Source: a virus. From it: a stretch of 64,000 nucleotides of DNA. The stretch is taken from the IMG/VR virus record IMGVR_UViG_3300029024_000001; one strand, given 5' to 3'. The translations under genes and the position numbers were made by a program. Below the pieces are notes generated by a model. The model had not been told where the DNA came from. It did not search any database and saw only the letters and a program-made list of their open reading frames with translations. Below, piece after piece: positions 26,584-49,200 of this stretch. Within the stretch, counting starts at the first letter, position 1, and each line of letters opens with the position of its first letter.

Positions 26584-26606
26584 TCTCATAACAAAAATGT
26601 TTTACT

Positions 26607-29600
26607 ATGACATCAACGTGTATTATTAAAAGAGATAATAAAAAGAAAGTTGTTTCTGTCTCTACCAGATCAGGGGACAGGTCTATGTTGTTTGATAAAA
26701 TAGCATCTGTTCCCCTTATGGAGAATAGGGAACGGGCTACTACTGTTTTTAAAACCGTATTTTCTAATAAGTTCTTAAAGGCTTTTGGTGACTGGAGAAA
26801 GAGGGTACCTATTAACAAACAGGCTTATAATAAGGTAAAATCCAATATCGACCTTATTCCGGAAGCCTATAGAGAAAGGGTGCTGGATAAGGCTTCTAAG
26901 ATGAGCAACCCTATTCTTGTGTCGAAATCAGATGCACCTTATGGGATTCAAGAATCAGGCTTTGGATTCTATAGCCAAGATCTGGGTGATAATATTATGT
27001 TGGTGGATGCTATGGTCCCGTCAGGTATTTCCGTACCGGAAGAACCGGGAATAGACGCCGGCCAGTATCTACAAGATGCTATATCTTCAGACTTCACTCC
27101 CGTATCTATGGTACAGGATAAGGGTGTTGATTATATGGTTATAAAAGACGGTCTTAAGATATTTAGCCCAGAAGAGCTACCAGAGGCAGATTCTAATCCT
27201 GTGGGTGTAACGTATCAGACTGGAGAGCCTCGTTTGTTTTTCATGAACGATCGTAATCAATTATTTGAAGATTACGGAGAAGCTCTTCGCTCTGGAGGGA
27301 ATGATATCAGAATAGGATTCTTATCTGGCACCGTTCAAGAATCTGCCTGGGATGGCGTGGCAGACATTACTTACAAGGCTGGAAAGTATGTTCTTAATAA
27401 TCCCAAGTCTTTTATACCGGTCATGACCGCTTCTGCTTCTACTTCTTTATCAACAAAAGGCGGTATAATTAACTACCTTATAAAGAAAGGTCTTTTGTCA
27501 GGATCCAAGATATTCAATCCGGAAACAAGAAGCTATTATCTTACAGGAGAAGGACATGCAGGACAAATTAGACTTTTCAATTCAGCCTTAGCTTATACCG
27601 AGCTCCGTAATCATTTTGGTTCCGATGTTTCCATGAACGACCAAGGTATGATAACCATAAGCTCGTTGGATAACAGTAAGGTAACTATGAGGCTCGCCAC
27701 CGGAGGAACGGAAAGGATTAGCAGGGAGCAGATAAAGAACGATCTTAAGTCAGGAAGATACAATGAATTGGACGCCAAGTACGATCATTTTGATGCGCTT
27801 GTAGTTTCATTCATATTAGAAGACAACGATCTTTATGCTGATACTAAAGCTAAGATCGTATCAGATTATAGCAGGCAGGAACGTGACCAACGAAATTCTA
27901 TTGTAGAGATACTGAAAACGCTTGGCGTTAGTGTCATAGGTATGACCGACTATATAGAGAAGTACCAAACCAAATACGGGCATGAACCTTCTGCTAAGGC
28001 ATTGGCGGATATTGCCAATAACGTAATAGCAGTTGGTGAAGATGCTACTTTATCTGATTTAGTAGAAGAAACAGCCCACTTCCTTGTAGAGGCATACAGA
28101 GATCAGAATGCTGTTGAGGCTGTTCTGCAAGATGTAGAAGGTACGGAAGAGTGGAACCAGTATGCAGGTCAGTATTATAATACATACGGTAAGGTATATG
28201 AAGGAGCTGAGCTTGATAATGCTGTTAGGAGAGAAATTCTTGGAAAGATCCTCGCCAGGGAGATGCAGACCGGCACAGCACAGGCGCCGGTAGAGCCCAC
28301 CTCCTTCCTGGGGCGCGTCCGGCAGCTTCTCTCTGGAATCGTAAGCTGGCTTAAATCAGCTTTATCTACTCAAAGACAAGATTTGAATAACGTTATTAAA
28401 AACATTCGTGATCTTGCCATTACTGACATAGATAAAGGATTTGATACCTCTCTGTTAAAGGATAATGACTTTACATTATACTCCCTTTCTTCTATGAACA
28501 AGAACAAGTTTCTTGAGTCTAAGATCCGGGCATTAAGAAAAACCTTAAGAGACTTGCGTCAGATAAGCTCTGATAGGGCTGTAACTACGTCTATGACCCT
28601 TGCTCAGCTTAAGACTATAGAAGATAAGATAAATAAGGTAGAGACCGAAATAGACAAGAATGAGATGGCGGCTGCCATGAATAGCATGATCTCTACAGCC
28701 GAAGCTCAGGTCAGATACTTAAGTAATGTGGTGAACGCCATCCTTCATGGTGATACCGAAGATGGTAAGCTTCACTTCAATACCAATGATCGAAAGAACG
28801 TAGATATTATCAACAATCAGGTTCTTCCGATCATGAACGATCTTCGAGGATATATCCGTAACAGAAGTACCGAATTTGATGAACGTGAAAAGCAGGATTA
28901 TACAAATAGGATCAATACCGTCATTGCCGACATCAATGGTATTCAGTCTGATATTAAATCAGTACAAGACCTTGATGAAAGTACGTTGCTTGATAAGTTA
29001 ATGAACGAACTTCATGTGCCGGCAGATAAGGTAAAGAGAGTAAAAGAATTTTTTGACAAGGTTCAACACGATGTTTCTTGGATAAGTAGGTGGTTCGGTA
29101 TATTAGAGCATTCTTCCAGTCCGTTCAATAACGCTCTTGGAGCTATGATTGCCAAAGACAATTACAATGCGATGGTGAATGCCCAGCCCGCCATATCCGA
29201 CTTCCTGGCATATGCTAAAAAGCATGGTTTTAACAAATCTGAATTTGAAAAACTGCTTCAGAAAGTAGACGGCAAAACTTCTAATTACCTTCGTAGTGCT
29301 CTTGATATGGCTAAATATGATCGTAATAAGAAGTTGGCACAGATGCGTGCGTTTGCTACTGCCATGAACATAGAAATATCAGAAGAAGAAATCAATGATG
29401 TGGTTGACAATAATCGTAATTACGTATTTAAAAGAGAAGTAGTTGACAAGGACGGAAATACGGTTACTGAAAACGCTAAATTTAAACCATCGTCTGACAG
29501 GGTTAATACCGATATTTTTACCATCGAGCAGGAAAAGATCTATACGGAGCAGATGGAAAAGTGGGATGCTGAAAATTCGGAACTGGAATTTAGTGAAAGT

Positions 29601-32600: not shown

Positions 32601-33029
32601 GCCGTATCTATGCTTCTTGCCGGATGGCGTGATGATGATGAAAACGAAGAAAGTTGGCTTACTCAATTTGGATCCTATGTCGGATTCAGAACCATAAACG
32701 AAATAGCTTCACAGATGCCGTTTATTATGGAGCTTAACGTGGTAGATATCATTAACGACCCGTTTGTCATGGGGCGGAAGTTGAAGGATCTTACTGATCT
32801 TAGGAATTACTCACTTGATAAAGTAACATCCGGCACATACAAAGGAGAGTCTAAGTTATTTAGGCAACTCGCCAAACAGACGTTTATCAAACAATGGTAT
32901 AATATCAAGACGCCGGAAGACGTAGCGCGCGCCTATAATTGGTGGCAGCAGACGAACAACAAGTCAATGATGTTCTTCATCGGCGCTACTCCTGATTCGG
33001 AAGGAGACGATGATGTTAGTTACAAATAG
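26607..33029 (+). CDS. Giant virion-associated protein of 2140 aa
   Basis: It is a 6.4-kb ORF and a strong terminator follows it. Confidence 0.6.
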   Translation: MTSTCIIKRDNKKKVVSVSTRSGDRSMLFDKIASVPLMENRERATTVFKTVFSNKFLKAFGDWRKRVPINKQAYNKVKSNIDLIPEAYRERVLDKASKMSNPILVSKSDAPYGIQESGFGFYSQDLGDNIMLVDAMVPSGISVPEEPGIDAGQYLQDAISSDFTPVSMVQDKGVDYMVIKDGLKIFSPEELPEADSNPVGVTYQTGEPRLFFMNDRNQLFEDYGEALRSGGNDIRIGFLSGTVQESAWDGVADITYKAGKYVLNNPKSFIPVMTASASTSLSTKGGIINYLIKKGLLSGSKIFNPETRSYYLTGEGHAGQIRLFNSALAYTELRNHFGSDVSMNDQGMITISSLDNSKVTMRLATGGTERISREQIKNDLKSGRYNELDAKYDHFDALVVSFILEDNDLYADTKAKIVSDYSRQERDQRNSIVEILKTLGVSVIGMTDYIEKYQTKYGHEPSAKALADIANNVIAVGEDATLSDLVEETAHFLVEAYRDQNAVEAVLQDVEGTEEWNQYAGQYYNTYGKVYEGAELDNAVRREILGKILAREMQTGTAQAPVEPTSFLGRVRQLLSGIVSWLKSALSTQRQDLNNVIKNIRDLAITDIDKGFDTSLLKDNDFTLYSLSSMNKNKFLESKIRALRKTLRDLRQISSDRAVTTSMTLAQLKTIEDKINKVETEIDKNEMAAAMNSMISTAEAQVRYLSNVVNAILHGDTEDGKLHFNTNDRKNVDIINNQVLPIMNDLRGYIRNRSTEFDEREKQDYTNRINTVIADINGIQSDIKSVQDLDESTLLDKLMNELHVPADKVKRVKEFFDKVQHDVSWISRWFGILEHSSSPFNNALGAMIAKDNYNAMVNAQPAISDFLAYAKKHGFNKSEFEKLLQKVDGKTSNYLRSALDMAKYDRNKKLAQMRAFATAMNIEISEEEINDVVDNNRNYVFKREVVDKDGNTVTENAKFKPSSDRVNTDIFTIEQEKIYTEQMEKWDAENSELEFSESYATRMESIYKKAEEELGHPVSQTTKEYLNALSRQKRILRQPFIDSGGNFDEVAYYKSSNYEEEGLLRKQRKEAASEYIYVGTRRVEKTGDQLKMAKEIQAINEVWRKESNNVTNAVSESFLQKLRTIQIESGGEAALKTLMLGGHLSFNDRFWNDIESEQSARTESNNKASYLKMAQDIISSTTSDRDATDVDSIVKDIEKNKAIIKEIIGNNRDVADIGEINEATFTSSERDAFRAASEAIEADYAILIDYAKMVGLEDIDKYLTKSSKAENEVNQSYLNALADSKEVEWKFVQRHTTAKKAKRIQALRDKLFKAADNRYLFTVSETNYLSEKLGISKELDGRDFRNAVNTKMASLFLNNTRESGIEEANAIVNEFARSQVFSYYKRMAPTGYAAMLGKIGRGEIDVAQMVKDVQNGTSTQDYGMNISYLSFDPARAWVAESEAENSGRNPDYVKDHGYGYRMPKKSLYRDESYFNDFGIRYDADGNEIATKNVEQWNMIQKLKEIKRQSLSLYKEQSPNLYAIPQISKQDIERMEGLGINFKNTVRNFVSDLCLDRVDDSLYGKTRQGEVYDPEDRIRSIPKYYIYELENQDDVSHDFGYSYSMLMMQSSLYNEKQKSIELAQGLEQMLLNKQFEGGKKAEATQAYQMFRDFFNDHYYGIRMNTKKLTVNIGGYTIDLTRIMMAVERFMSVMNLALSPFVAATGALTGHINLIMESAVGQYISKDSLKYASAEFSRLAPSCIAETGDIDRKSKLYVIGERMGIFNIRNRMYGAGYNRVARTLMRSPMYAFMEILNYPLDPQVMIATMDNVRYYKGRFYTFQDFKMEKERGKEQSTIKREWDALKDRTLWSMVDVVDGKVVVKPGSGVTVEEVETQMAITRNQVRSLSQICNGSLNEENRTAASRNWIARFMTAHRGWLVLAAQRLWKRRGFNFQTMQEEEGLSITLKNMIAKTFSLASESGMKNIIDAWNENKDNMNEVEKTNLKRLSVYAGTFLIMQAVSMLLAGWRDDDENEESWLTQFGSYVGFRTINEIASQMPFIMELNVVDIINDPFVMGRKLKDLTDLRNYSLDKVTSGTYKGESKLFRQLAKQTFIKQWYNIKTPEDVARAYNWWQQTNNKSMMFFIGATPDSEGDDDVSYK

Positions 33030-33164
33030 ACGAAGAATATCGGACTTGCATTGTTTTTGTATGATTCCAATATGTTATATTAGCATCGTCAAAGAGTAGA
33101 CTATACGTTTTTGTTCTTACTTGGAAGATTATGTAGGTTTAATTTTTTCTGAAATTGTTTTCTT

Positions 33165-33207
33165 ACCGGTTCTCAGTCAGAGATGATAGAGAACCGGTTT
33201 CTTTTAT
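33165..33207 (+). terminator. Intrinsic terminator
   Basis: A perfect 10-bp stem accggttctc/gagaaccggt with a 14-nt loop is followed by ttcttttatg. Confidence 0.55.
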
Positions 33208-33245
33208 GTTGTCAATTATTGCTATCTTGCAAACAAAAAAGAATC

Positions 33246-33968
33246 ATGAGAAGAAGATTTGAAAATAATGTTAAACTATATGAGTATAAGATAGTTAGCA
33301 ATTGTATAGGGGGGGGGGTAATAGTAGAAGGCAAGAAAGTCGGTACCATCCCACAGAGTGGGCAATTTATCTTTCTGTCTAAAAAAGAACGTCTGGATTC
33401 CATAAGTATTCAAGGCGGTGTTCCATTCAATCATAGGTTGTTAAATGATTCTTATACTGAAAACAAAACAGAGATAGAGGGGATTGAGGATCTTAAGCTG
33501 AATGTTCTGCCAAGCAGTTTTAATCCCCGTCTTTTAAATGTTAATTGGGTTAATGGTCCTCTTTATTGTGTCTCTACTCCTATCACATATAATATATATA
33601 CCGTTTATGAGTATCGTGCACCTTCTGATATTAACAATGTTCAACCTGGAGAGCATTATTTAAATTATATTAGAACGTTAAGAGAAGAGGCAACGGAAAC
33701 CCCTGGCGCCGCCGTTAAAGATCAACTTGTTTTATATGACTCAACATGGCATTTAAATATTGTTGGTGGTAATGTTGAACATATGGGTCAATCCGGCATA
33801 CTATATAAAATAAATACGGTAGCTCGGGTAGGTATATCGTCTCCTATACAGATTAACAGTTATATTGTACTTGAAGGTAAACTGTACCTTAGATTAACAG
33901 TGGTAACTACAGGAGAAAAATTAGATGTAATACCTATTACACAACAAGTTCGATATGAATTTAAATAA
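33246..33968 (+). CDS. Beta-rich small virion protein, possibly a fibre or receptor-binding accessory, containing a G10 tract
   Basis: It is a 240-aa ORF. I chose the ATG after the terminator, because the tool start at 33183 lies inside the hairpin. It is the last gene of the plus-strand block. Confidence 0.5.
   Translation: MRRRFENNVKLYEYKIVSNCIGGGVIVEGKKVGTIPQSGQFIFLSKKERLDSISIQGGVPFNHRLLNDSYTENKTEIEGIEDLKLNVLPSSFNPRLLNVNWVNGPLYCVSTPITYNIYTVYEYRAPSDINNVQPGEHYLNYIRTLREEATETPGAAVKDQLVLYDSTWHLNIVGGNVEHMGQSGILYKINTVARVGISSPIQINSYIVLEGKLYLRLTVVTTGEKLDVIPITQQVRYEFK
33309..33318 (+). repeat. G10 homopolymer inside a coding sequence, encoding GGG
   Basis: Ten consecutive G sit at codons 22-24 of the 33246 gene, in a genome of roughly 35% GC. 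Confidence 0.85.
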
Positions 33969-34016
33969 AAAAAACAATCATGGCACCAAGAACTATCGGT
34001 GCCATGATTGTTAAAA
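33966..34016. terminator. Bidirectional intrinsic terminator at the point where the two convergent gene blocks meet
   Basis: A perfect 13-bp stem caatcatggcacc/ggtgccatgattg is flanked by A9 on the plus strand, which is T9 on the minus strand, and by ttaaaacc. Confidence 0.65.
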
Positions 34017-34268
34017 CCGTTTCTTGTAACAAGAGTCTACTACTTTTACCTTTTCTTTTTCTTTCTTACCATGATTAAACTTATACGCATCTTCGAATGA
34101 ATAAAAAACAGCATAACACCACATACCAAACATATCGTATTTTATACTGTTTTTCCATTTTCCAAAAATGTTTTGATATTGACACCAATATTCTACTTCC
34201 CCATTAGTTAATTTCCTTTCAACTATTCTAAGAGGAGTATGGAATAGATTCCTAAACATTAACTTCAT
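34011..34268 (-). CDS. Hypothetical protein of 85 aa
   Basis: ORF. Its stop abuts the bidirectional terminator. Confidence 0.45.
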   Translation of the reverse strand: MKLMFRNLFHTPLRIVERKLTNGEVEYWCQYQNIFGKWKNSIKYDMFGMWCYAVFYSFEDAYKFNHGKKEKEKVKVVDSCYKKRF

Positions 34269-34734
34269 GACCTGTCCTATCTGTGAAAATCAAACCAACA
34301 CCTTCTATAACGTATCCTACTGTAGGAGCTTTATCGTATTCCTCTTTCGTAGCCCACGTAGCATTATCAGGCATCAGTTCCTTAAAGACTTTTGGAACAT
34401 AGCCCTGACACCAAGTATTATTAGATACAACAATACCCTTTCCTTCGATGTTAATATACATCTTTCTCCCTCCGCATCCAAGAGCATTCCATCCACCTGG
34501 TACGATCGCTGCCATAGGTTTGATAATCCAGCTTACGCCATCGATTCTAACCCATCCTGGATTGTCTTTGTGTACGTTGTATATATTCTGCCAGCAGGCG
34601 CACTGAAAGCACCACCCACGTTCTTCCATAATGGTCCTAATGTCCCCTTCTATGAAATCCGAGGCATTCATTGAATGTGTAGAGTTGGGATTGTGCTTGG
34701 CACCACACTTAGGACATACGAGTTTTAAATTCAT
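34252..34734 (-). CDS. Hypothetical zinc-ribbon protein with a weak deaminase-like HxMNA...CxxCA pattern
   Basis: It has an N-terminal CPKCG. THSMNAS...GWCFQCACWQNI loosely resembles the zinc motif of dCMP deaminases, but the catalytic Glu is not evident. Confidence 0.45.
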   Translation of the reverse strand: MNLKLVCPKCGAKHNPNSTHSMNASDFIEGDIRTIMEERGWCFQCACWQNIYNVHKDNPGWVRIDGVSWIIKPMAAIVPGGWNALGCGGRKMYINIEGKGIVVSNNTWCQGYVPKVFKELMPDNATWATKEEYDKAPTVGYVIEGVGLIFTDRTGHEVNV

Positions 34735-35477
34735 GATACTTCCTCCTTGTTTTTAGATTCTGCCTCTTCAAGTATGCTGATCACCTTATCAACAATATAC
34801 GAATCTGACATTTTCTCAATAAAAACATCCATTGCCTTAGTTATGTCATTGGCTTCTTTTTCTTCAAGAGCTATTTCTCCACCGGTAATAGCATCAGATA
34901 ATGATGTAGATAAGTGTCTTATCTTATCAATGCTCATAAACGTAAATGGATTACCACCCCATCCACCACCCATTTCTTTCATGATCTGATATCCACCTGA
35001 AATAAGTCTGCCTGATGTCGTGGCCAAGGAGGATACGATTAGGGACAGTACCGCCGCTTCCGTCCGCTCCTCGGACACGCCCCTCGACCACACGGCTGCC
35101 CTTATAGCGCCGGCCAGATCGTCTATGTATGGCATGAGGCAATCTTCCATAGCTTGTGTTATATCAGCTATAACCTCACTACGCTCTTTATTTATGTAGT
35201 AGATAGAAGCATTGTACCTCTTTATCTCTTTGTCCATATCATTTAAAAGACGCTTGATATTGTGCTTATACATAGGACTGGTTTTAATTACTTCCTTTAG
35301 CTTAAGAATGTAATTATAAGCCTGGTCATTTACGAACAACGTCATGGTCTCAACCGTTGAATGAAGTGTGTTAAGACTGTTAAGAATCTTATCGAAATTG
35401 TTTATCAAATAAGCTCTTCTGGCTTTTGCTGCGTAGTTAATGTTATTAAAATTATTCATTTTATTCATTAGATTCAA
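34731..35477 (-). CDS. Hypothetical protein of 248 aa. Its first 13 or so codons lie inside the right end of the TnpB element.
   Basis: The ORF is continuous from an ATG inside the conserved IS right-end sequence. It contains a sharp GC-rich island at 35035-35120. Confidence 0.5.
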   Translation of the reverse strand: MNLMNKMNNFNNINYAAKARRAYLINNFDKILNSLNTLHSTVETMTLFVNDQAYNYILKLKEVIKTSPMYKHNIKRLLNDMDKEIKRYNASIYYINKERSEVIADITQAMEDCLMPYIDDLAGAIRAAVWSRGVSEERTEAAVLSLIVSSLATTSGRLISGGYQIMKEMGGGWGGNPFTFMSIDKIRHLSTSLSDAITGGEIALEEKEANDITKAMDVFIEKMSDSYIVDKVISILEEAESKNKEEVS

Positions 35478-35620
35478 CCTTATATCACAAAATATTTATT
35501 CTAACCGGATTAAACACAAATCCACTATCGATTATCTTTCCAATGAAAGAATCACCGACTACTTTTCTTGCTATTCCAATTGATCCATTAATATCTGCAT
35601 TGATCAGTTTTCCAATTGAA
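35422..35620 (-). ncRNA. Putative TnpB omega-RNA (right-end-derived RNA) of copy A: a scaffold overlapping the tnpB 3' end and right end, plus about 20 nt of flank as guide
   Basis: IS605 TnpB systems are known to encode the omega-RNA at the right end. The conserved 3' region is shared with copy B. The guide would be ATTAACTACGCAGCAAAAGC. Confidence 0.3.
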
Positions 35621-36676
35621 CTTTGAAACAATCCACGTTTCTTTCTTTTTCCTAAGTAGGATTCCTGTTTCTTTAGAGGTTCAAAAGCAAGATGGTCAAT
35701 CTTTGATGTGTAAGATTCCTCATGAGTAATTACCTCTATCCCTAAAAGATTTGCTTTGTAAACAATCTTATCAATCAATTTAGAATGAGGAATAGAAACA
35801 AAATGTTGGTTATTCCTTTTACCGATATTTATCTCGTTTTTCCATTCTTTGTTTAATCCAATGATGATTGTTCCTATATTGTTAGATTTACAAAAGTCTA
35901 CAATGTATCTACTGATTTTATGCAATTTGTCTTCTATCCAACAATTTCTAAACAAAGTAATTTTTCTTATTCTATTTGAAGTTCCCTTATTACCAACAAA
36001 AGACATCAACTTAGCTTTCTTCTTATTGTACCACTGATTTACTGATTTCATAACCCGTCCGTTTATAATGAAAGAATTAGTTTCTACATTACTAATACAT
36101 GAACATAAATTATTCAATCCTAAATCAATCGAAAGAAAATTGTCTTTGTTTAAACCAAGATCAGTTTCCTTTCTTTCATAAACTACCTCAAGCTACATAA
36201 CATGTAGCTTGAGGGATTATTCTAACTTGTTTTAGTTCGTCTTTCTTTACATTTGTTTTGATAGGTTTGATTATATCTTTAACAAAATAAATACAATTAT
36301 CACCCTTTACCCTACAATTGCAGTTGGTGAAAACAACCATGTTTTGTTTCTTGCCCTTCTTATACGAAGGAAGATGAGGACGATGATTACCGTATTTCGA
36401 AGGATTCTTTTCAAAATCTTTCTTTAATCTCATCCAGGATTTTATGTTTTTAAATACCTGTTTAATCACCTGCTGTGAAACATGATTAGGTAAATTCCTG
36501 AAATCAAATTGGTTTTCTTTGCAAAGTTTGTTTGATAAATCAAATTCCTTTAAATAGTTACCTGAAAAGATTCCTTGACGAATGTTGTAAAGAACATAAT
36601 TATATAACAAGCCGGATTTGAAGCAAATATCCTCAAACCGGTTGTCTTTAACTATATGCCTTTCAACTAATCTCAT
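35485..36676 (-). pseudogene. tnpB: tnpB pseudogene. Fragments 36188-36676 and 35485-36117 are separated by a +1 frameshift.
   Basis: The two ORFs align to the N- and C-terminal halves of the intact copy at 47969-49162, with about 80% amino-acid identity. The RuvC motifs SIDLGLNN, EESYTSK and NADINGSIGI are retained. Confidence 0.7.
36186..36214. repeat. Perfect 13-bp inverted repeat cctcaagctacat / atgtagcttgagg with a 3-nt spacer, located at the tnpB frameshift point
   Basis: It is an exact palindrome. The homologous site in copy B is only a quasi-palindrome, ccacat..attgtgg. Confidence 0.8.
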
Positions 36677-36729
36677 TTGAATGATTTATATCGTAAATGT
36701 AATCGTTATTTGTAAAATAATCAAATTAT

Positions 36730-37272
36730 TCAATCATCGTATTCAAATTTTAGATTTTCAAGTTCATGTATTTGTAACCTAAGAGACTTAATTAAATTCG
36801 TTCTCTGTTCCTCTGCATGTTTTAAAGCCTCTTCCTTGCTTTCAAAAGCACAATCCCCTATCTGATAAGGGGTGTAACGACCAGGAGTGTCGGCTAATAA
36901 AAGACCACCACAATCTTCTATTCTGGCTTTTACCTTTCTTATTTTCCCATCTTTTAGACACATGTCTGTAACCCATACGAATTTACCATATAATTTATCA
37001 TACTCTTCTGATCTCTCTTCTTGCAATTCATACCATTTAAGCTTAGGAAATCTTAATGTGAATTTAACCTCAGTATCTTTTTCTAAGACATTAATATCGT
37101 ATGCTTCCGGCCACAGCTCTTTTATGCTGTCTTCGTCTTCGGCATACGCTACAAGTATGAATGAATCATCGGATTCACCACTACACCAATATGGATATTT
37201 TATAGGCCATTTGACTGGACGGTAGTCGTTACCGCAGTCGGATTTTTTAATGTAAAATCTTGCTCTAATCAT
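36730..37272 (-). CDS. Hypothetical protein of 180 aa
   Basis: ORF. Confidence 0.5.
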   Translation of the reverse strand: MIRARFYIKKSDCGNDYRPVKWPIKYPYWCSGESDDSFILVAYAEDEDSIKELWPEAYDINVLEKDTEVKFTLRFPKLKWYELQEERSEEYDKLYGKFVWVTDMCLKDGKIRKVKARIEDCGGLLLADTPGRYTPYQIGDCAFESKEEALKHAEEQRTNLIKSLRLQIHELENLKFEYDD

Positions 37273-37279
37273 ATCGTTA

Positions 37280-37591
37280 TTAATCTAATAATTTTTCTAT
37301 TTTAATTGATTTTGATGATAGATACATATTCCACGTTCCTCTGCCTCTATCACCTTTTTCGTTTTGTTTTTGGATTGTCAAGTACAGATCTCCGTCTTCA
37401 CATACTTCAACTTTTTTCAAGAAGCCTATCATTTCATCTCCTGCTTCGTGTAAAATACGGATCTTATCTCCTTCTTTTAACCCATAATTGGAATCAAAAT
37501 ATTCTTTTTTGATTCTATCAATATTGTCTTTATGGTTTTTTATAGCATAAAGCTCTTTTCTTAATAAATAATTTAGTTGTTCTATTGTCAT
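37280..37591 (-). CDS. Hypothetical protein of 103 aa
   Basis: ORF. Confidence 0.45.
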   Translation of the reverse strand: MTIEQLNYLLRKELYAIKNHKDNIDRIKKEYFDSNYGLKEGDKIRILHEAGDEMIGFLKKVEVCEDGDLYLTIQKQNEKGDRGRGTWNMYLSSKSIKIEKLLD

Positions 37592-38145
37592 TTCTTTTCC
37601 TCCTTATTTAATGGTATCAACCCTTTTCCATGCTTGTCATACCACAGCATAGCTATGCAGTTCCATGCACATTGTGCAAGATGAAAACATCCTGTATCGG
37701 AATCCACTCTTTCCCCTTTCATGTATTCCATCAGGTGTCGAAACATCGCAGCACGGTACCGTTCAAATCCGTTGTCAAGGTTCTGCCAAGTATTAGGATC
37801 GTACTTTTTGGCTCCGGCATGATAGACTTTTACAATGTCCTCAATCTCTTCCATTGGAAGCAAATCCCATCGTAGTTTATCATCAATGATGTCATTTTTC
37901 ACCGATTTGTTTTCTATGGGGTCTTTGGTAAGAATAATATCCATAATATCCGTTTCTATGACGAACGTCTCCCCATTGCAACAAACCTCAGCATATTTAT
38001 CATTTACTTCTATGTCTGATACTGCCTCCGCTATAGCTCCTTTGACGATTTTAAATTCGGCACTGATTATATCATCTTTTAATATGCGAAAAATAGATCC
38101 TTTTGGATAAAGGATATTTTTAGTATTATCATCCATCTTTTCCAT
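37588..38145 (-). CDS. Protein with a C-terminal domain resembling the phage dATP/dGTP diphosphohydrolase domain, a likely nucleotide pyrophosphohydrolase
   Basis: RWDLLPMEEIEDIVKVYHAGAKKYDPNTWQN...RYRAAMFRHLMEY...DSDTGCFHLAQCAWNCIAMLWY matches my memory of that family, with a KY..NW motif, RH, and E.G..HLA. Confidence 0.4.
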   Translation of the reverse strand: MEKMDDNTKNILYPKGSIFRILKDDIISAEFKIVKGAIAEAVSDIEVNDKYAEVCCNGETFVIETDIMDIILTKDPIENKSVKNDIIDDKLRWDLLPMEEIEDIVKVYHAGAKKYDPNTWQNLDNGFERYRAAMFRHLMEYMKGERVDSDTGCFHLAQCAWNCIAMLWYDKHGKGLIPLNKEEKK

Positions 38146-38197
38146 TGCTTTATCGTTGTTTTACCTCATTTCGATAGTAATATAATCCATCTTCGTC

Positions 38198-38485
38198 TTA
38201 TACCCTATCATTTCTGTTTTTCTCAAAATACTGTCTTACGGCTTCAATCGCCTTATCGTCATCAAAAGCCTCTACAAACCCCTCATAGAATCTATTTCGC
38301 TCCATAGAGAACGTATTGCTTCCATCCGGAATGGTTCTGAACACAACTACCTTCTCTCCATCTACGTTCGTTCCTATGATGTTGTTATGGAGAATAATAG
38401 AATACCGCCCAGAGTTTTTGTTCTGGACGACACTATGTTCGAGATTGTAGAGTCTAAGTAGTTCTCTTATTTCTTTTACTCCCAT
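38198..38485 (-). CDS. Hypothetical protein of 95 aa
   Basis: ORF. Confidence 0.45.
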   Translation of the reverse strand: MGVKEIRELLRLYNLEHSVVQNKNSGRYSIILHNNIIGTNVDGEKVVVFRTIPDGSNTFSMERNRFYEGFVEAFDDDKAIEAVRQYFEKNRNDRV

Positions 38486-38486
38486 A

Positions 38487-39203
38487 TTATTTTACGTTTT
38501 TAGAAGTTACAGCCTCTTCTCCCCATTTCTTTACATATATAGATCTCATCATGTTCATTAAATTAGAGAAAGAAGAGATGGTTCCCATCTCTATGCAGAA
38601 TGCAAGATTAGACTGTAGGGTTTCAAGTTCTTTCAACTGCTCTTGAGTTGCTCTGTTATCTAAAACATATTTATGTTTATTGAATACAATCCAGTTTAAC
38701 TTATCAGCCATTTCTATATAATCAACATCTTCAAATTTTGATACAGACCTTGAAAGAGTATTGTATTTATCCCCTATCTCTATTCTATCCAAAATAAGTT
38801 TATCATTTAACCATCCAGTAACTTCTGCATACAGCATAGGATTTAATTCTATAGCGACTAATACCCATATGTAGGGATCACACATAACATTCCTGTTTGT
38901 TCCTCTTCCTGTAGTCTTATAGGCATTATACCACTTCATTACTTTTATCAAAGAGTTGTTTTCCACTATATCCATAAACTCTTTCAAGTTTTCACTTTTT
39001 ATGTATTTCTGTTTTTTAAGAATATAAAATATCCTTTCTGCACTCTCCTTGTTCGAAAGAATATTTTCTATTCTCTTATCATTCCACCCCATCTCTACTC
39101 TTTTTCTTGTATATGCCTCTTGTAATCCAGTTAATGACATAAAGGAAGTTTTAATGTCTTGTCTGATTACCACTCCATACAATAACCTGTCTTTAGAAAT
39201 CAT
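38487..39203 (-). CDS. KilA-N domain protein
   Basis: GRGTNRNVMCDPYIWVLVAIELNPMLYAEVTGWL fits the KilA-N pattern GTW.hP.la..fA.Wl.p.f...v..W. Confidence 0.45.
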   Translation of the reverse strand: MISKDRLLYGVVIRQDIKTSFMSLTGLQEAYTRKRVEMGWNDKRIENILSNKESAERIFYILKKQKYIKSENLKEFMDIVENNSLIKVMKWYNAYKTTGRGTNRNVMCDPYIWVLVAIELNPMLYAEVTGWLNDKLILDRIEIGDKYNTLSRSVSKFEDVDYIEMADKLNWIVFNKHKYVLDNRATQEQLKELETLQSNLAFCIEMGTISSFSNLMNMMRSIYVKKWGEEAVTSKNVK

Positions 39204-39224
39204 ACCTTTTAAATTATCTAATAA

Positions 39225-39290
39225 AATACGCTTGTATTAAAATTACACGACGTAAAAATATAGATTGTGTAACTTTAATACAAGCGTATT
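39225..39290. repeat. Long hairpin or cruciform: a perfect 17-bp arm aatacgcttgtattaaa / tttaatacaagcgtatt plus an inner 6-bp arm ttacac/gtgtaa
   Basis: It is a stem of about 23 bp with one mismatch and an 18-nt loop. It lies between the stop of 39301-39645 and the start of the KilA-N gene. An AT-rich tract follows on the minus strand. Confidence 0.6.
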
Positions 39291-39300
39291 GTGTTAAATT

Positions 39301-39645
39301 TTACTTATAGTGTTGGTTACACTTTACAAGCCGCTTCCCGTCGTGGAAAAAGTAAGAGTGGTTGCCAAAAGAAAGGAAAATAAGTTCTTTAATACAAGCT
39401 TTTGGTATGGTCATTATACCAGAAGCTTGTTCTAATGTATTGGAATTACCAACAGCATAATGACCAGCTACAGATATAGATCTCTCATTTTCATGTACAA
39501 CAATACCATAGCTCTCTATTTCTGATATATCTGTTTCGTAATCCTCCAGATCTACCCATGTTCTTTCTGATAGGTTGGAATCTATCCACTTAACTAATAC
39601 CCGCTTGTTTAAAAGCGATTCTTTTTTATGTCTATTCTTTTTCAT
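39301..39645 (-). CDS. Hypothetical protein of 114 aa
   Basis: ORF. Confidence 0.45.
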   Translation of the reverse strand: MKKNRHKKESLLNKRVLVKWIDSNLSERTWVDLEDYETDISEIESYGIVVHENERSISVAGHYAVGNSNTLEQASGIMTIPKACIKELIFLSFGNHSYFFHDGKRLVKCNQHYK

Positions 39646-39678
39646 AACTTGTTATATTGATTTTTTAGTAAACGAAAA

Positions 39679-39708
39679 GAGATTGTGCCAGCATTTTGAC
39701 ACAATCTC
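39679..39708 (-). terminator. Terminator-like hairpin
   Basis: A perfect 9-bp stem gagattgtg/cacaatctc is followed on the minus strand by tcttttcgttt. Confidence 0.4.
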
Positions 39709-39777
39709 AATTATATGGGAATAATACTAAGGAAAAGTGTAAAGTGTTATATAATTACCATAGTGTTTTTTATGGAC

Positions 39778-40134
39778 TCACATTATTCCTACCAAATTTA
39801 CTTTTATAGAACCATTTATGGTTTTAATGCTCCCATCTATGGTTGAAATCACATCATCTATATCATTTATAATACCTTCCATGTCATCAACCACCTCCTC
39901 CATATCAGTTACAGCCTGATCTGATTCCCAATATCTTTCTGAGTCTTGTAACGATTCCGGTATATTATCTCTCGCCTCAGTCTCTTCATCTAAAATCATA
40001 TCAACATCATCTTTGGCTGAATTTATGTTGTGCTTCAACTCCGACAACTTTGATTTGATGTATTCAAAATCTGTTTTATACTTATTTACGTTGTTAATAA
40101 CATCCGATATTTTTTTTCTTCTCTTGTTGTTCAT
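39778..40134 (-). CDS. Hypothetical acidic protein of 118 aa
   Basis: ORF. Confidence 0.45.
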   Translation of the reverse strand: MNNKRRKKISDVINNVNKYKTDFEYIKSKLSELKHNINSAKDDVDMILDEETEARDNIPESLQDSERYWESDQAVTDMEEVVDDMEGIINDIDDVISTIDGSIKTINGSIKVNLVGIM

Positions 40135-41555
40135 GCCTTTATCTTATTATAATATTCGATAATCTTTTCTTTCCTGTCTCCTGGTTTTACTGCCATATTC
40201 TCAGCCAAGAACCTAAAATACGACACTGGTATGTCCTTGAATCTAATTCCTTCATATTTTCCAAACCACATTATTATACTGTCAAGATCGTCTTCTCTCC
40301 TACCATCTCCATTCACAGATTTAAGCGAGGCTGCCCGGCGAAGGATCTCGTCTTTGGTAATAATATCACCCATCCTTATATTAGACAGAAGTTGATCTCC
40401 GGCAAACATACACCAGCCCTTAGAAGGGAATTGTTCGATTGTCAAGTCTTCTATCCGACCGAAACGCCTCATGTTGTCGCAGCAATCAACTATCAGCGCC
40501 TCTTTCTTGTCAGGATGGATGCGGACGGCTCGGCCTAATATTTGGTAATACGTTGAATATGAGAACGTTGGTCGACCAAACATCACACAATCAAGTTCAG
40601 GAAAGTCAAATCCGGTAGCAAGCGTTGAATAATTAAAAACCACCTTCAACTTACCTTCTTTGAAATCGGATATAATTTGTTCTCTTTTCTTTTTGGTTGT
40701 TAGCGATGTTACGACACCGGTTATGGCTCCCATCCTGGCATTCATGAACTCTGATATTCTATTACATGATTCGATAGAATCCATACAGACCAAAATGGCT
40801 TTACGTTCGTTCATAAGTTGAAGAAGGCGCTTGTAGATAGAGTTGTTTAAGCCGTTTCGTACAATACTTTCTTTAATAGATTCGTTGGTGTATTCAGCTC
40901 CGGTACTGTTTAACATCAGAGCCGATTCATCAAACGACCATCGTTCGTACTTAAGTGGACACCAAAACCCTTGAGAGGTTAGTTCTTGTATTTGAGTCAC
41001 ATGAACTATTTTCTTGAAGAAATTATGCTCGTCTTTCGTCAGCATATTGAGCTTGCTATAGTTTCCTTCCAGCATGGAACTGTAGGTTCTGAGGCGGCAG
41101 GGAGTGGCGGTGAAGCCCAGCACCTTCGCCTCTGGGAACCTGTTCATAAACTCCATAAATTCAGAACCTTCTTCAGGAGAATATCCTGAATGACATTCGT
41201 CTATCAATAAGGTATCTATCCCTATATCCTTCAACCTCGCTACATCTTTCTTTATGCTCTTTAATGTTGCATAAGTCATAGCCGACAGCTCCTTTATACC
41301 ACATGAAGCAGAATATATAGTAGGTTTAGAACCGAATGATACGGCCTTTGCATAATTCTGCTCCAGAATCTCTTTTGAGGGCTGTAATACTAATGTCGGT
41401 CTATTTATTTCATGTGCTATCTTGGATATCAGAAGGCTCTTTCCACATCCGCATGGGGCTACGATTATGCCAGGCTTCTTAGATCTTCCTGTAAGAAACT
41501 TAAGCCCGGCATCTACTGCCTCTTTTTGGTAAGGTCTAAGTTCAAAGCCCATCAC
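40131..41555 (-). CDS. Superfamily-2 DEAD/DEAH-type DNA helicase
   Basis: It has LRPYQ, motif I APCGCGKS, motif II LLIDECH, motif III GFTATP and motif VI QILGRAVR. Confidence 0.8.
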   Translation of the reverse strand: MMGFELRPYQKEAVDAGLKFLTGRSKKPGIIVAPCGCGKSLLISKIAHEINRPTLVLQPSKEILEQNYAKAVSFGSKPTIYSASCGIKELSAMTYATLKSIKKDVARLKDIGIDTLLIDECHSGYSPEEGSEFMEFMNRFPEAKVLGFTATPCRLRTYSSMLEGNYSKLNMLTKDEHNFFKKIVHVTQIQELTSQGFWCPLKYERWSFDESALMLNSTGAEYTNESIKESIVRNGLNNSIYKRLLQLMNERKAILVCMDSIESCNRISEFMNARMGAITGVVTSLTTKKKREQIISDFKEGKLKVVFNYSTLATGFDFPELDCVMFGRPTFSYSTYYQILGRAVRIHPDKKEALIVDCCDNMRRFGRIEDLTIEQFPSKGWCMFAGDQLLSNIRMGDIITKDEILRRAASLKSVNGDGRREDDLDSIIMWFGKYEGIRFKDIPVSYFRFLAENMAVKPGDRKEKIIEYYNKIKA

Positions 41556-41928
41556 AATCTATTATATTATTTTTTGAAAGTTCTATTATCGCCTCTTTCA
41601 ACATCTCCCTTGCTTTATTCTCATTATCTTCAAACAGGCATACACTGCATGTAGCACCTTTGGAGGGGTAGTCTCTGTAGGCTTCTGCTCTTTCTACAAC
41701 GTACTCACAACAATAGTCGTGACTCATGTCTTTTGCTATATTTATAAAATGATCTTCTCCATCCATCAACACACAATATTCAGCATCGTTTTCGCATGCA
41801 ATAACACCTTTGTTTTTTAAAATGGATAGCACTTTGTTTCCAAAAAGTCCAATATAGACCCATATATCTTTCCCTGCATTTTTGTAAAAAATATCCATTC
41901 CTTCTTTGATTGTGACTTTCTTTTCCAT
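41542..41928 (-). CDS. Hypothetical Cys-rich protein of 128 aa
   Basis: ORF. Confidence 0.45.
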   Translation of the reverse strand: MEKKVTIKEGMDIFYKNAGKDIWVYIGLFGNKVLSILKNKGVIACENDAEYCVLMDGEDHFINIAKDMSHDYCCEYVVERAEAYRDYPSKGATCSVCLFEDNENKAREMLKEAIIELSKNNIIDCDGL

Positions 41929-41934
41929 AATCCC

Positions 41935-42258
41935 TTATTTTATATCAGTAATTAAAACATATATTTTAGCAATATCTTCAAGACTCACAGAAGAACGTAT
42001 ATATAGTTTTTCTTCGTACTCATATAGAGCGTACCCTTCTTTTACGTCTAATATCTTAATCACATGCTTGCCTCTTTCAAATGGATCCTCAAAGTAGTTC
42101 TTATGTTCGTATCTTTGACCGACTTTTATTTTGTCAGTTTTCTTCTTCATCTTATAACGATCTACTGCTCTACCTGTTTTTATGAAAGCTGTCGTGAGTA
42201 AGTATAATAAAACTAAATACAAAAGGATCGCTACTCCACATATTAGATCTTCTTTCAT
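41935..42258 (-). CDS. Hypothetical membrane-anchored protein of 107 aa
   Basis: It has an N-terminal transmembrane helix. Confidence 0.45.
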   Translation of the reverse strand: MKEDLICGVAILLYLVLLYLLTTAFIKTGRAVDRYKMKKKTDKIKVGQRYEHKNYFEDPFERGKHVIKILDVKEGYALYEYEEKLYIRSSVSLEDIAKIYVLITDIK

Positions 42259-42428
42259 TGGACTCCCTTTAAGTAGTTAAACCATATATCCTCCAGCTTC
42301 TCCTGAAGCTCAAATGCTTTCTTAAAATTCCCGCATCTTACAGCAACGTCTCTCATGTATGTCAAGTTTATAACTTCCGGATCTTGCCGGTATTTTGTTC
42401 TTAACTTTTGAACATCCTCGTATTTCAT
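42255..42428 (-). CDS. Hypothetical small protein of 57 aa, not in the ORF track
   Basis: Its ATG makes an ATGA overlap with the upstream stop, and its TGA makes an ATGA overlap with the downstream start. The product is MKYEDVQKLRTKYRQDPEVINLTYMRDVAVRCGNFKKAFELQEKLEDIWFNYLKGVQ. Confidence 0.4.
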   Translation of the reverse strand: MKYEDVQKLRTKYRQDPEVINLTYMRDVAVRCGNFKKAFELQEKLEDIWFNYLKGVQ

Positions 42429-43956: not shown

Positions 43957-43963
43957 ATTGTAT

Positions 43964-47107: not shown

Positions 47108-47109
47108 AC

Positions 47110-47322: not shown

Positions 47323-47925
47323 TTAACTGTTGTACCCTTCTTTAATAATCGAATTTCTACCGGTAGATACCGACTGGCGAAGATCGTCATGTACAGAATC
47401 TACCGTAGAATACTTGTTTCTGGTTGTAAAAATCACTTCCAGCATCTCCTTATAATCACCTAAAGCTACTTCATATCTCGGATCTACTTTGGCTTTTCTT
47501 TCAGCTTCGGCATTACTCTTAGCCAGCTCCCGGTCAAGAAGATCTTCTTTGATTCGATCAGCAATCATATCAAGCTCTTTTTTGATTACTTCGCCAGCTG
47601 CCCGAAGTTGACCTTCTACATCACCAAGCTGGTCTTGGATAGTTCCTATTTCTTTCTTTAAACGATCATATTCGTTAATCATACCCATATCACCTGCATA
47701 GCCGGAAAAGTCCTTGATTATTCTGGTTCCTTCTTTAAGGAGCTCAATGACTCGTCTTTTACGTTCTCTGCTTATTAAAGACGGAAGACGATAATTCATA
47801 TCCGCTACCGCCTTGTCATGTATGGAGTTGATTAAAAACATCTCTCTCTCATCCCCTGCAAACTCCGTAAGAACCAAAAGGAACTTACTTATCAGGTATT
47901 CGTTTTCTTCTACTGTAAGTCTCAC
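47323..47925 (-). CDS. Hypothetical coiled-coil protein. It has a GTG start abutting the TnpB right end.
   Basis: ORF. Confidence 0.45.
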   Translation of the reverse strand: MRLTVEENEYLISKFLLVLTEFAGDEREMFLINSIHDKAVADMNYRLPSLISRERKRRVIELLKEGTRIIKDFSGYAGDMGMINEYDRLKKEIGTIQDQLGDVEGQLRAAGEVIKKELDMIADRIKEDLLDRELAKSNAEAERKAKVDPRYEVALGDYKEMLEVIFTTRNKYSTVDSVHDDLRQSVSTGRNSIIKEGYNS

Positions 47926-48110
47926 GTTATTAAAATTTTAAATTTTATTCATTAAATTCACATCTATATTACAAAATGTTTACTCTAATCGGGTTAAACG
48001 CAAACCCACTATCGATTATCATGTTTACAAATGAATCACCGAATACTTTTCTACCTATCCCAATAGCTCCATTGATATCCGCATTTAACAACTTTCCAAC
48101 TGAGCTTTGG
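47906..48110 (-). ncRNA. Putative TnpB omega-RNA of copy B
   Basis: Inferred from IS605 TnpB biology and the conserved right-end region. The guide would be GTGAGACTTACAGTAGAAGA. Confidence 0.3.
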
Positions 48111-49200
48111 AATAATCCACGTTTCTTTCTTTTGCCTAAGTAAACATCATGCTTCCCTAATTTCTCAAAAGCTAAATGATCAACCTTTGATGTATAGGAT
48201 TCTTCATTAATTTGAAAGCTGATACCTACCAACTTACATTTATAGGATATTTTGTCTATAAGTCTTGAAAAAGGTATTTCAACAAACTTTTGATTAATCT
48301 TCTTTCCAAGATTAATCTTTTGTTTCCATCCTTTATTTAAACCTATTACGATACTACCAATGTTGTTAGTAATACAATAATTGACAATATATCGACTAAC
48401 CTTGTGGATGTAGTCTTCTATCCAAAAATTCCTATAATTATTTAGCTGTCTAAGTCTTTCAGAAGTACCCTTACCTCCAACATAAGACATTAACTTAGCT
48501 TTCCTCTTATTGTACCACTGATTAAAAGATTTCATAATCCGCCCGTTTACAATGAAAGGAACCAATCCGGCATTGCTGATACATGAACATAAATTATTCA
48601 ATCCTAAATCAATCGAAAGAACATTATCCTTATCAAGACTTAGATTATGTTCTTTCTTTTCATAAATTACTTCAACCACATAGCATGTAGATTGTGGAAT
48701 GATTCTAACCTGACATAATTTACTATCTCCTATTTCAGTTTTAATTGGTTGAATTATATTTTTAACAAAATGAATACAACCATCCTTCTTTAGCCTACAA
48801 GCAGAAGTTGTGAACACAACCATGTTCTGTTTCTTGCCTTTCTTGTACGAAGGTAGATGAGGACAACAATTATCGTATTTGGAAGGATTGTTTTCAAAAT
48901 CCTTCTTGAGTCTAATCCATGATTTTATATTTTTAAAAACTTGGCCAACTACTTGTTGAGAAACAGAAGTGGGCAAATTCCTGGAATCAAATTGATTTTC
49001 TCTACAAAGTTTGGTTGAAAATTCATATTCATTCAGATATTCTTTATTGAAGATACCTTTACGCGCATTATACAAGACATAATTATATAGCAATCCTGAT
49101 TTGAGGCAAATATCTTCAAATCTGTTATCTTTAATAATATGTTTTTCAACCAATCTCATCAATCAATTTTACTATTTGAAATTTCAATTTTATTACCTTT
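47926..49200 (-). mobile_element. IS200/IS605-family TnpB-only element, copy B, intact. Boundaries are approximate.
   Basis: It holds an intact tnpB. The right-end core gttattaaaatt (47926-47937) is shared with copy A. The left end fits into the 38 nt after the DnaB-like gene's stop. Confidence 0.6.
47969..49162 (-). CDS. tnpB: TnpB, the OrfB_IS605 RuvC-like RNA-guided nuclease family
   Basis: It is 397 aa with RuvC-I SIDLGLNN, RuvC-II INEESYTSK and RuvC-III NADINGAIGI. Confidence 0.8.
   Translation of the reverse strand: MMRLVEKHIIKDNRFEDICLKSGLLYNYVLYNARKGIFNKEYLNEYEFSTKLCRENQFDSRNLPTSVSQQVVGQVFKNIKSWIRLKKDFENNPSKYDNCCPHLPSYKKGKKQNMVVFTTSACRLKKDGCIHFVKNIIQPIKTEIGDSKLCQVRIIPQSTCYVVEVIYEKKEHNLSLDKDNVLSIDLGLNNLCSCISNAGLVPFIVNGRIMKSFNQWYNKRKAKLMSYVGGKGTSERLRQLNNYRNFWIEDYIHKVSRYIVNYCITNNIGSIVIGLNKGWKQKINLGKKINQKFVEIPFSRLIDKISYKCKLVGISFQINEESYTSKVDHLAFEKLGKHDVYLGKRKKRGLFQSSVGKLLNADINGAIGIGRKVFGDSFVNMIIDSGFAFNPIRVNIL

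Follow-up and report, generated by a model that had tools for sequence, protein, structure and literature searches.

The closest described relatives of the elements considered here are the TnpB elements of the IS200/IS605 superfamily, such as ISDra2, IS608, and the IS1341 group. These elements encode a TnpB protein with a RuvC fold, create no target-site duplication, and have a structured RNA that covers the 3' end of tnpB and the right end. They insert 3' of a fixed short motif, and the sequence flanking the right end would be the guide (PMC13565253, PMC8612924). By definition, the IS605 target-adjacent motif is the sequence that abuts the left end (PMC13565253), and spread by RNA-guided break and repair has been shown for bacterial IS605 elements (PMC10690162). 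The same traits of protein, RNA, and insertion recur in a family of phage elements that is represented by two copies, A and B, in IMG/VR virus record IMGVR_UViG_3300029024_000001, a stretch of 64,000 nucleotides (nt) that we analyzed as a whole and refer to as the window. We propose, as the probable account, that this family inserts at start codons and restarts the genes that it displaces and that the tnpB gene of copy A (tnpB-A) was killed by replication template switching.

Judged by its sequence, the source of the window is a crAss-like gut phage related to csAssE-Sib (OR575929.1), to which the region 33000-39500 is ~92% identical. The latter is classed as an epsilon crAss-like phage, and its description mentions two TnpB-family "transposase" genes, which were not analyzed further (PMC11054128). 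An earlier reading of the window, made from the letters alone and called the original prediction below, had claimed that copy A aligns end to end with an intact copy B and is split by a +1 insertion. The alignment agrees: copies A (35442-36676) and B (47926-49159) are colinear with 75.4% nucleotide identity, their homology ends at 35442, and the copy B product is a protein of 396/397 amino acids.

Start codons as insertion sites across the family

A protein-seeded scan of IMG/VR gave 159 matches, from which the best 80 full-length loci were taken. Their contigs span ~14-188 kb, most of them 50-160 kb, and in these epsilon crAss-like phages 17 separate insertion sites can be told apart. At 15 of these 17 sites, the right end closes with ...TTTTA(A/G)T(A/G)AC GTG, and the terminal GTG is in frame with downstream open reading frames (ORFs) of 64 to >818 codons. 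Among 71 nonredundant contexts, the terminal triplet is GTG in 65, ATT in 5, ATA in 1, and ATG in none. The unit can be written RTTGAA...AACGTG, placed directly 3' of a start ATG. The start-codon architecture is, therefore, a property of the whole family and no accident of copy A, which is the odd one out: the terminal GTG is missing from copy A, from L002 (MT835500), and from L239.

Alleles without the element ("empty" alleles) provide direct evidence for this arrangement. At site B, where csAssE-Sib is empty too and has ATG, 110 empty alleles read ATG AGA CTR ACA, whereas nine occupied IMG/VR alleles and copy B of the window read AATAAC GTG AGA CTT ACA. At site L023 (~104 empty versus 24 occupied alleles), CATG/GCAAGG becomes CATG/ATTGAATAA...AACGTG/GCAAGG, where slashes mark the junctions, and at site L053 (47 empty versus 5 occupied alleles), TATG/GATAGG becomes TATG/GTTGAATAA...AACGTG/GATAGG; comparison of empty and occupied alleles at these two sites reveals no target-site duplication. 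A fourth site, L054, has 83 empty and 60 occupied alleles. The exchange of ATG in empty alleles for GTG in occupied alleles is seen at sites B, L010, and L054, and each informative set of empty alleles places the element immediately 3' of the start ATG. Four sites (A, L023, L053, and L054) have a clean left junction, and at each the left flank ends in ATG, mutated to ATA in the occupied L054 alleles, while the base before it varies (G, C/T, T, and T, respectively). Besides site A, the element start RTTGAA was confirmed at two further sites with many empty alleles.

Two other placements of the ends were considered and rejected. Insertion between bases 1 and 2 of the start codon (R/TG, with the element ending as TTGAA...AACG) predicted the native sequences ATGATGGCAAGG at site L023 and ATGGTGGATAGG at site L053; ~150 empty alleles instead show ATG/GCAAGG and ATG/GATAGG. 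The pentamer TTGAA as a motif derived from the target, by analogy with TTGAT of ISDra2, is ruled out too, as it occurs in no empty allele.

Individual sites add observations of their own. The insertion at site L054 destroyed the overlapping stop of the upstream gene (ATGA), and all occupied L054 alleles (L052-L083, L489, and others) carry ATG>ATA, which makes TAG and restores that stop, as an apparent compensation for the insertion. One L054 contig, L559, has the 3' end of tnpB (...GATAGTGGGTTAGCG) fused in frame to downstream codon 2 by a deletion that took the right end along with the remainder of the omega-RNA region. Contig L165, an empty allele of site L023, starts its gene with GTG instead of ATG (GGATTGACGTG/GCAAGG), and this could be a motif-escape (resistance) allele or an excision scar left by recombination between ..GAC/ATG and ..AAC/GTG. 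Sites L047/L020 and L049/L039 lack a left end, and tnpB begins with an ATG 1-3 nt after the upstream stop, as if TnpB used the target gene's own start codon. Finally, the window itself contains an unoccupied landing site at 26552-26610 on the plus strand, the start of a 2,140-amino-acid ORF (ATG at 26607); in L010, a family element sits at the start of this same gene, where ATG ACA has become GTG GCA.

The encoded protein has the hallmarks of TnpB. Copy B matches the Pfam families PF01385 OrfB_IS605 (1.5e-16) and PF07282 Cas12f1-like_TNB (1.3e-07), and both domains are also present in the C-terminal fragment of copy A. Among 61 unique proteins, D184 (S[IV]DLG) is found in 60, D361 (NADING) in 59, and E319/E320 (EESYTSK) in 58; one more reads KESYTSK, with the second Glu kept. 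The canonical RuvC-II Glu is replaced by Gly (IVIG, residue 273), and the conserved EE pair lies 46-47 residues downstream. Rearranged catalytic sites are active in TvoTnpB and a Fanzor (PMC10312701), and the RuvC site of the family matches this active class, making the protein a predicted nuclease. In 57 intact genes, variability by codon position is 166/121/330, an excess at the third position. The closest PDB match is a Cas12f (E = 3e-5), and similarity to any solved structure is weak.

The family is almost confined to phage contigs. A scan of cellular genomes found three relatives only, at 35-42% identity, and no bacterial source linked to TnpA was identified; cellular relatives are thus at most 42% identical. 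A 156-nt stretch of the tnpB gene of copy B (window 48191-48346) is 70% identical to records of Prevotella megaphage Lak-A1, which suggests that related TnpB genes exist in Lak phages.

The last ~190 nt of the element appear to form an RNA scaffold. A consensus fold of 46 haplotypes has 38 pairs and is 98.9% paired, with compensatory changes at 8 pairs versus 2.0 in shuffled alignments (0/500), and controls slid along the alignment reach at most 58% paired. The fold includes a 6-bp A/T hairpin (helix 7) 5 nt from the 3' end of the element. This 3' structured region resembles what an omega RNA scaffold would look like, although an Rfam scan of 34000-50500 (E ≤ 1) returned two chance-level matches and no omega RNA or intron family. 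Folds of the left end are weak and not conserved (z of -2.3 to +0.5).

On these sequence features, copy A is best classed as a TnpA-less TnpB/omega-RNA element of the IS200/IS605 superfamily, IS1341-like, a membership for which most of the expected features were found and TnpA was not. Three points weigh against this classification. First, no TnpA was found, and the 1,293-bp copy A holds no second ORF. Second, a search for a left-end hairpin was unconvincing. Third, the TNB region is without CxxC zinc-finger cysteines across the family.

The comparisons show that the element inserts on the coding strand, at the boundary of the start ATG and codon 2. Its 5' end (RTTGAATAA) would stop ribosomes that come from the orphaned ATG or from the upstream gene. 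At its 3' end, the omega-RNA-like scaffold is normally followed by ...TAAC-GTG, from which the displaced gene would restart in frame. Because nothing next to the left end is constant except ATG, we propose that the target-adjacent motif of the nuclease is (N)ATG. The terminal GTG may then be a start codon that avoids re-creating the motif beside a target that matches the guide, which would explain why no copy is seen with a terminal ATG, a better start codon just one transition away. Spread would presumably occur by RNA-guided homing between coinfecting phages, in the way shown for bacterial IS605 elements (PMC10690162).

Taken to its full extent, this proposal describes a translationally seamless RNA-guided homing element with an ATG motif, 5' stops, and a GTG that protects it from self-cleavage, of which copy A is a member decaying without the GTG and the guide register, while its right end is kept alive by the host gene. 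We advance it tentatively and, as a whole, lean slightly against it. Speaking against the insertion rule, a clean left junction is available at only four sites, and the left side of sites B and L010 lacks the native ATG and the ~8-11 nt before it. Moreover, the ATG motif is confounded with selection, in that start-codon insertions may be the only ones to survive in a densely coding phage.

Alternatively, the loci might not be mobile elements but domesticated, TldR-type guide-RNA regulators of the adjacent gene. The lack of a detectable TnpA, the sites that have no left end and a tnpB ATG 1-3 nt past the upstream stop, and a guide that would match the first codons of the neighboring gene all fit such a role. 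Nevertheless, at least five sites are polymorphic for presence and absence, with clean empty alleles, and near-identical ends recur at 17 different insertion sites. In addition, the catalytic residues are conserved in the rearranged, active-type configuration, and the target in occupied alleles is flanked by GTG or AAC, not by the proposed motif. We therefore regard domestication as very unlikely.

Copy A and the start of the downstream gene

The junctions of copy A are set by seven empty alleles of site A, from csAssE-Sib (L001) and six IMG/VR contigs; the first site-A pattern, of 16 nt, was too short and matched mostly unrelated contigs, and six true empty alleles were kept. They read ...GAATACGATG/ATT AAY TAY GC..., such that on the minus strand the end of the upstream gene, ...GAA TAC GAT GAT TAA, overlaps the start of the downstream gene, ATG ATT AAY TAY GCN. 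The window has ...GATG/ATTGAATAA...(1,293 bp)...TTTTAATAAC/ATT AAC TAC GCA, and the right end finishes with AATAAC. The insertion point of copy A is thus the boundary between the native ATG and codon 2 (35439-35441). The ATT at both junctions consists of the first three bases of the element and of native codon 2 and is not a duplication. The C terminus of the upstream gene is kept, with native GAT GAT TAA becoming GAT GAT TGA.

The downstream ORF of the window (34731-35477, 248 amino acids) has a TTG at 35477 and ATGs at 35468 and 35459, all of which fall within 35442-35484. These two ATGs of the right end are the only in-frame canonical ATGs upstream of codon 2; with the native ATG stranded on the far side of the element (Table 1), the gene most probably starts at a right-end ATG. 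The original prediction had placed the start of this gene inside the right end and had concluded that the element donates its 5' end. Both claims are supported by the empty alleles, which put the native ATG across the element. The native N terminus is MINYAAKAR and that in the window is M(NK M)NNFNN-INYAAKAR; the protein is predicted to gain 6-9 N-terminal residues if translation begins at either ATG and 12 if it begins at the TTG at 35477. Right-end initiation would give an N terminus of MNNFNNINYAAK or MNKMNNFNN....

Copy A and L002 share the open leader ATG AAT AAA ATG AAT AAT TTT AAT AAC, of which L239 keeps the second ATG only. The sub-lineage of copy A has lost the terminal GTG and would rely on this open leader, with its ATGs in the right end, instead.

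Initiation need not lie within the element, which would then give spacing only: the gene could start at an internal TTG (35406-35408) or at ATT (35439-35441). Initiation at TTG is allowed, and this TTG lies in frame, 11 codons into the native gene; as a point against a right-end start, it could begin a protein 11 residues shorter than the native one (N terminus MINNFDK...). Shine-Dalgarno-type evidence is not expected in Bacteroidota phages either way. However, the 11 codons before the TTG differ among alleles by only three synonymous changes and one conservative (R/K) change, and the right-end frame is open, with two ATGs, precisely in the sub-lineage that lacks GTG, whereas the corresponding frame of copy B is closed by TAA. 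Furthermore, at 15 other sites the last codon of the element is an in-frame GTG adjoining codon 2, and a fossil copy at site A has kept precisely the right end. An internal start is, on this evidence, quite unlikely, and the right-end ATGs are the preferred starts.

Site A displays a series of stages of decay: an intact copy (L386), the +1 copy (window and L084), a -1 copy (L401), and a 5'-truncated fossil (L394). Every copy in this series has an identical right end adjoining codon 2, and the segment 35442-35484 is 100% identical in the window, L084, L386, L401, and L394. Such shared right ends are expected once the host gene depends on the tail of the element; because the downstream gene would depend on it, the right end could not be lost. 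The L394 fossil is a "solo tail" (L394:13531-13826) in which the last ~236 bp, comprising scaffold and right end, remain at site A, joined on one side to an unrelated gene upstream and, on the other, still bordering ATT AAC TAC. In the 64-kb window, no solo right ends were found besides copies A and B.

The left end of copy A has homologs of 57-59 nt at other insertion sites. Its TTTG...TACATTTA motif resembles a Bacteroidota promoter and is a putative one; a sigma-70 promoter scan gave no enrichment, and the host is probably a member of the Bacteroidota, a group outside the coverage of that scan.

The 20 nt that follow the right end would, from the biology of TnpB and omega RNA, be the guide of copy A, and the empty alleles differ from this predicted guide at 1-2 positions. 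At site B, all 110 empty alleles differ from the predicted guide of copy B (47905-47922) at position 6 after the start, where CTA or CTG stands against CTT. All three codons encode Leu, so the mismatch is synonymous, and as it is proximal to the motif, it could reduce cleavage.

Table 1. Coordinates of copies A and B and of the features at their sites (window positions)
Feature	Position	Strand	Remarks
Copy A, whole inserted element	35442..36734	-	1,293 bp, 5'-ATTGAATAA to TTTTAATAAC-3'; from empty-site comparison
Left end, 58 nt upstream of tnpB	36677..36734	-	AT-rich; missing from empty alleles
tnpB-A N-terminal ORF fragment, 162 amino acids	36188..36676	-	Frameshift-made TGA at end
tnpB-A C-terminal part, shifted frame	35485..36187	-	RuvC-I D (SIDLG), EESYTSK, NADING; stop 35485-35487
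Perfect 13+3+13 palindrome	36186..36214	.	Extra base 36192; second templated difference (proposed) 36190
Omega-RNA-like structured region	35447..35629	-	Covers tnpB 3' end and right end
Right-end segment past tnpB stop	35442..35484	-	In-frame TTG 35475-35477, ATG 35466-35468, ATG 35457-35459
Predicted guide segment, 20 nt after right end	35422..35441	-	ATTAACTACGCAGCAAAAGC; equals native codons 2-8
Native body of downstream gene, codon 2 to stop	34731..35441	-	93% nucleotide identity to csAssE-Sib 237-amino-acid gene
Orphaned native ATG of downstream gene	36735..36737	-	Opens 3-codon mini-ORF ATG ATT GAA TAA
New TGA stop of upstream 180-amino-acid gene (36730-37272)	36730..36732	-	Element bases; native TAA replaced
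Copy B, intact element	47923..49188	-	ATTGAAATTTC (29-nt left end), tnpB 47969-49159, right end ...AATAAC GTG
Copy B terminal GTG	47923..47925	-	Start codon of 200-amino-acid downstream gene (47323-47925)

The palindrome and the frameshift in tnpB-A

The ORF of copy A is split in two (36188-36676 and 35485-36117). Deletion of one base restores a 396-amino-acid ORF that has no other stop and is 72% identical to copy B over a gapless alignment; tnpB-A thus has a single lesion. The surplus base, a C on the minus strand (GTAG-C-TTGAGG) and hence a g on the plus strand at 36192, is missing from all 82 other aligned family copies (21 haplotypes), in which the consensus reads CCTCAAGCTACATGCTATGTGG-TTGAGG and encodes PQATCYVVEV. 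As the original prediction had stated, the insertion lies within an exact 13+3+13 palindrome, cctcaagctacat aac atgtagcttgagg. This is the sole perfect inverted repeat in 64 kb with arms of at least 13 and a loop of at most 6 (0.03 per window in shuffles), and as single-stranded DNA it folds with -12.7 kcal/mol (z = -8.8). The prediction had also described the homologous site in copy B as a quasi-palindrome, but that site is hardly palindromic (-2.6 kcal/mol, z = -0.97), and closer relatives are the informative comparators.

Two such relatives carry the unshifted allele, which the original prediction had proposed to look for in population data. L386 also has the element at site A, with an intact tnpB (396 amino acids). 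L401, which shares 99.65% identity with the window copy across 1,419 nt, is unshifted at the palindrome, although it carries its own -1 frameshift within an AAA run. Both read ATGTAG-TAGAGG. Relative to them, the window has two changes 2 nt apart on the minus strand, +C at 36192 and A>T at 36190, and both turn arm 2 into the exact complement of arm 1: ATGTAG-TAGAGG (or -TTGAGG) becomes ATGTAGCTTGAGG, the reverse complement of arm 1, CCTCAAGCTACAT. The window differs from L401 at five positions in total, and the probability that two of them fall within 2 nt is, by our own calculation, p ~0.03. The sequence shared by L401 and L386, as the likely precursor, is an imperfect hairpin (-5.7 kcal/mol, z = -4.05), compared to -12.7 kcal/mol for the product.

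Template switching at quasipalindromes is an established mechanism that produces clustered changes copied from the other arm, and quasipalindromes are hotspots for it (PMC7202029); during break-repair synthesis, such errors reportedly become far more common (bioRxiv 10.1101/2023.08.09.552703). In copy A, the nascent strand would have copied ATGTAG and snapped back on CTACAT, after which arm 1 served as the template and CTTGAGG was made where TAGAGG had stood. Such an event would add one base, alter another, perfect the hairpin, and inactivate tnpB-A; the dead copy has since been inherited and recombined among phages. The original prediction had named template switching as what killed the gene; this is supported in that the changes in the window match the other arm exactly, with the mechanism read from its footprint only.

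Could the extra base be a sequencing or assembly artefact at the hairpin, with tnpB-A really intact? Palindromes are error-prone for polymerases and assemblers alike, and an exact-pattern scan of IMG/VR for the 29-nt palindrome found the allele in one other contig only, while a scan of Joint Genome Institute (JGI) metagenome contigs for both palindrome alleles returned zero matches. However, that other contig, L084, is an independent one in which the exact palindrome lies at the same genomic site. It is 96.4% identical to the window over 1.86 kb. The 67 alignment columns that differ comprise 64 substitutions and a 3-nt gap, and the 150 nt on either side of the palindrome are free of them. An identical allele in a contig so diverged means that the frameshift was inherited and is not an assembly error, which removes the possible refutation named in the original prediction. 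Also, two positions and not just one set the allele apart from its nearest relatives, and other copies at site A are dead by unrelated lesions, decay being the norm there. An artefact is extremely unlikely.

A more serious rival is an ordinary random +1 accompanied by an unrelated T/A substitution, with the perfect palindrome a coincidence. Such a stepwise history would pass via GTAGCTAGAGG or GTAG-TTGAGG on the site-A background. The outgroups, namely L002 and the family consensus, read GTAG-TTGAGG and are already T at the second position, allowing a history in which one change is needed on the window branch. This weighs against template switching, as does the finding that the gain of C alone plus a separate synonymous T>A in L386 and L401 is, on the sequences compared, equally parsimonious. 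Nor do the palindrome arms covary across the 82 other copies of the family; the quasi-palindrome is thus not a conserved structure but arises incidentally from the coding sequence. Nevertheless, the +C perfects the hairpin under either history, and by our own estimate only ~1 in 4,000 single-base insertions in the 1.19-kb gene would do so. The frameshift does not lie in a homopolymer, both of the neighboring differences from L401 (99.65% identical) match arm 1, and the site is of the kind known as a template-switch hotspot. Coincidence is thus unlikely, and a template switch remains the favored origin of the allele.

A further proposal concerns the fate of the hairpin and not its origin. It may have been kept as useful, either as a terminator-like or regulatory structure or as an off-switch that frees the downstream start from TnpB binding or processing, so that inactivation was selected. 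On the coding strand, the hairpin does score as terminator-like, with a 13-bp stem followed by UAGUUUAUGA, and the start codons of the copy A sub-lineage lie within the last scaffold hairpin. Dead copies make up 4 of the 5 occupied site-A alleles, reached by independent routes, versus 2 of 80 in the rest of the family, a comparison biased by the choice of the 80 loci as best full-length matches. A terminator inside an operon would, however, also cut transcription of the downstream gene. We find selection for the hairpin improbable, and it would in any case be compatible with an origin by template switching.

Element copies have also exchanged sequence. Two patches, 36353-36506 and 35578-35665, show 14-16% divergence inside otherwise identical copies; the window shares its patch haplotype with L401, and L084 shares the other with L386. 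The palindrome allele thus occurs on both patch backgrounds (a four-gamete pattern), from which it follows that element copies have recombined. No donor for the divergent patches of the window and L084 was found among the sampled copies. In the window at large, the sign of both GC skew and AT skew changes at ~34 kb, where genes switch from the plus to the minus strand, and from there onward the genes are on the minus strand.

Comparison with described systems

The frameshift alone is a minor mutational footprint, and the main interest lies in the start-codon architecture. Still, it has a parallel in the quasipalindrome reporters of E. coli and yeast, where, as proposed for copy A, an imperfect repeat is perfected by a clustered, arm-copying change (PMC7202029; bioRxiv 10.1101/2023.08.09.552703). 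Unlike these reporters, copy A is a natural allele from a phage population, found along with its likely precursor alleles, and its mechanism is read from the footprint only. The frameshift allele and its likely precursors would make an unusually well-documented case of a quasipalindrome template switch in the wild. The decay series at site A would, in turn, give a clear case from nature of a host gene that has come to depend on the end of a selfish element.

In its catalytic center, the family resembles TvoTnpB and ApmFanzor, which likewise have Gly at the position of the canonical Glu and a conserved Glu 46-47 residues downstream (E319/E320 in the family). It departs from that comparison set in a TNB region without zinc-finger cysteines. 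TldR repressors, in contrast, lose RuvC catalytic residues, whereas the family keeps the acidic residues in the rearranged configuration.

Compared to IS200/IS605 elements at large, the motif abutting the left end of the family is a start codon, ATG, where those elements have T-rich 4-5-mers (TTAC and TTGAT, for example). The right end of the family finishes in an in-frame GTG that would restart the interrupted gene, and TnpA is absent. Moreover, the left end is only 0-59 nt long and has no convincing hairpin. Full-text searches, most of them aimed at phage-borne TnpB elements and where they insert, turned up no TnpB element reported to insert at start codons or to end in one, in a collection that lacks most subscription-journal papers. 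If the motif is indeed ATG, a class of 396-amino-acid nucleases could address any gene start, and self would be told from non-self by a single A/G difference that leaves start-codon function intact.

As selfish nuclease genes that lie between conserved phage genes and are polymorphic for presence and absence, the elements recall the free-standing homing endonuclease genes of T-even phages (PMC13565253). Intronless homing in those phages spreads such genes by break repair during coinfection, and the same would be expected for the family (PMC13565253). They differ in that recognition by the family would be RNA guided and in that insertion occurs at a codon boundary inside a gene, not in an intergenic position. 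Insertion at the first codon boundary would explain how the elements persist in phage genomes with almost no noncoding DNA.

A further comparison is with IStrons, which combine a group I intron with an IS605 or IS607 TnpB. Both insert in a phenotypically silent manner, and in both the omega RNA shares a transcript with the host gene (PMC10690162). The Rfam scan of 34000-50500 detected no group I intron, and copy A is accordingly no IStron. IStrons achieve silence by RNA splicing, whereas the family would do so by stopping translation at the 5' end and supplying a restart codon at the 3' end. Carrying its own stop and start codons would thus give a selfish element a third way of inserting harmlessly into genes, beside splicing, as in IStrons, and landing between genes.

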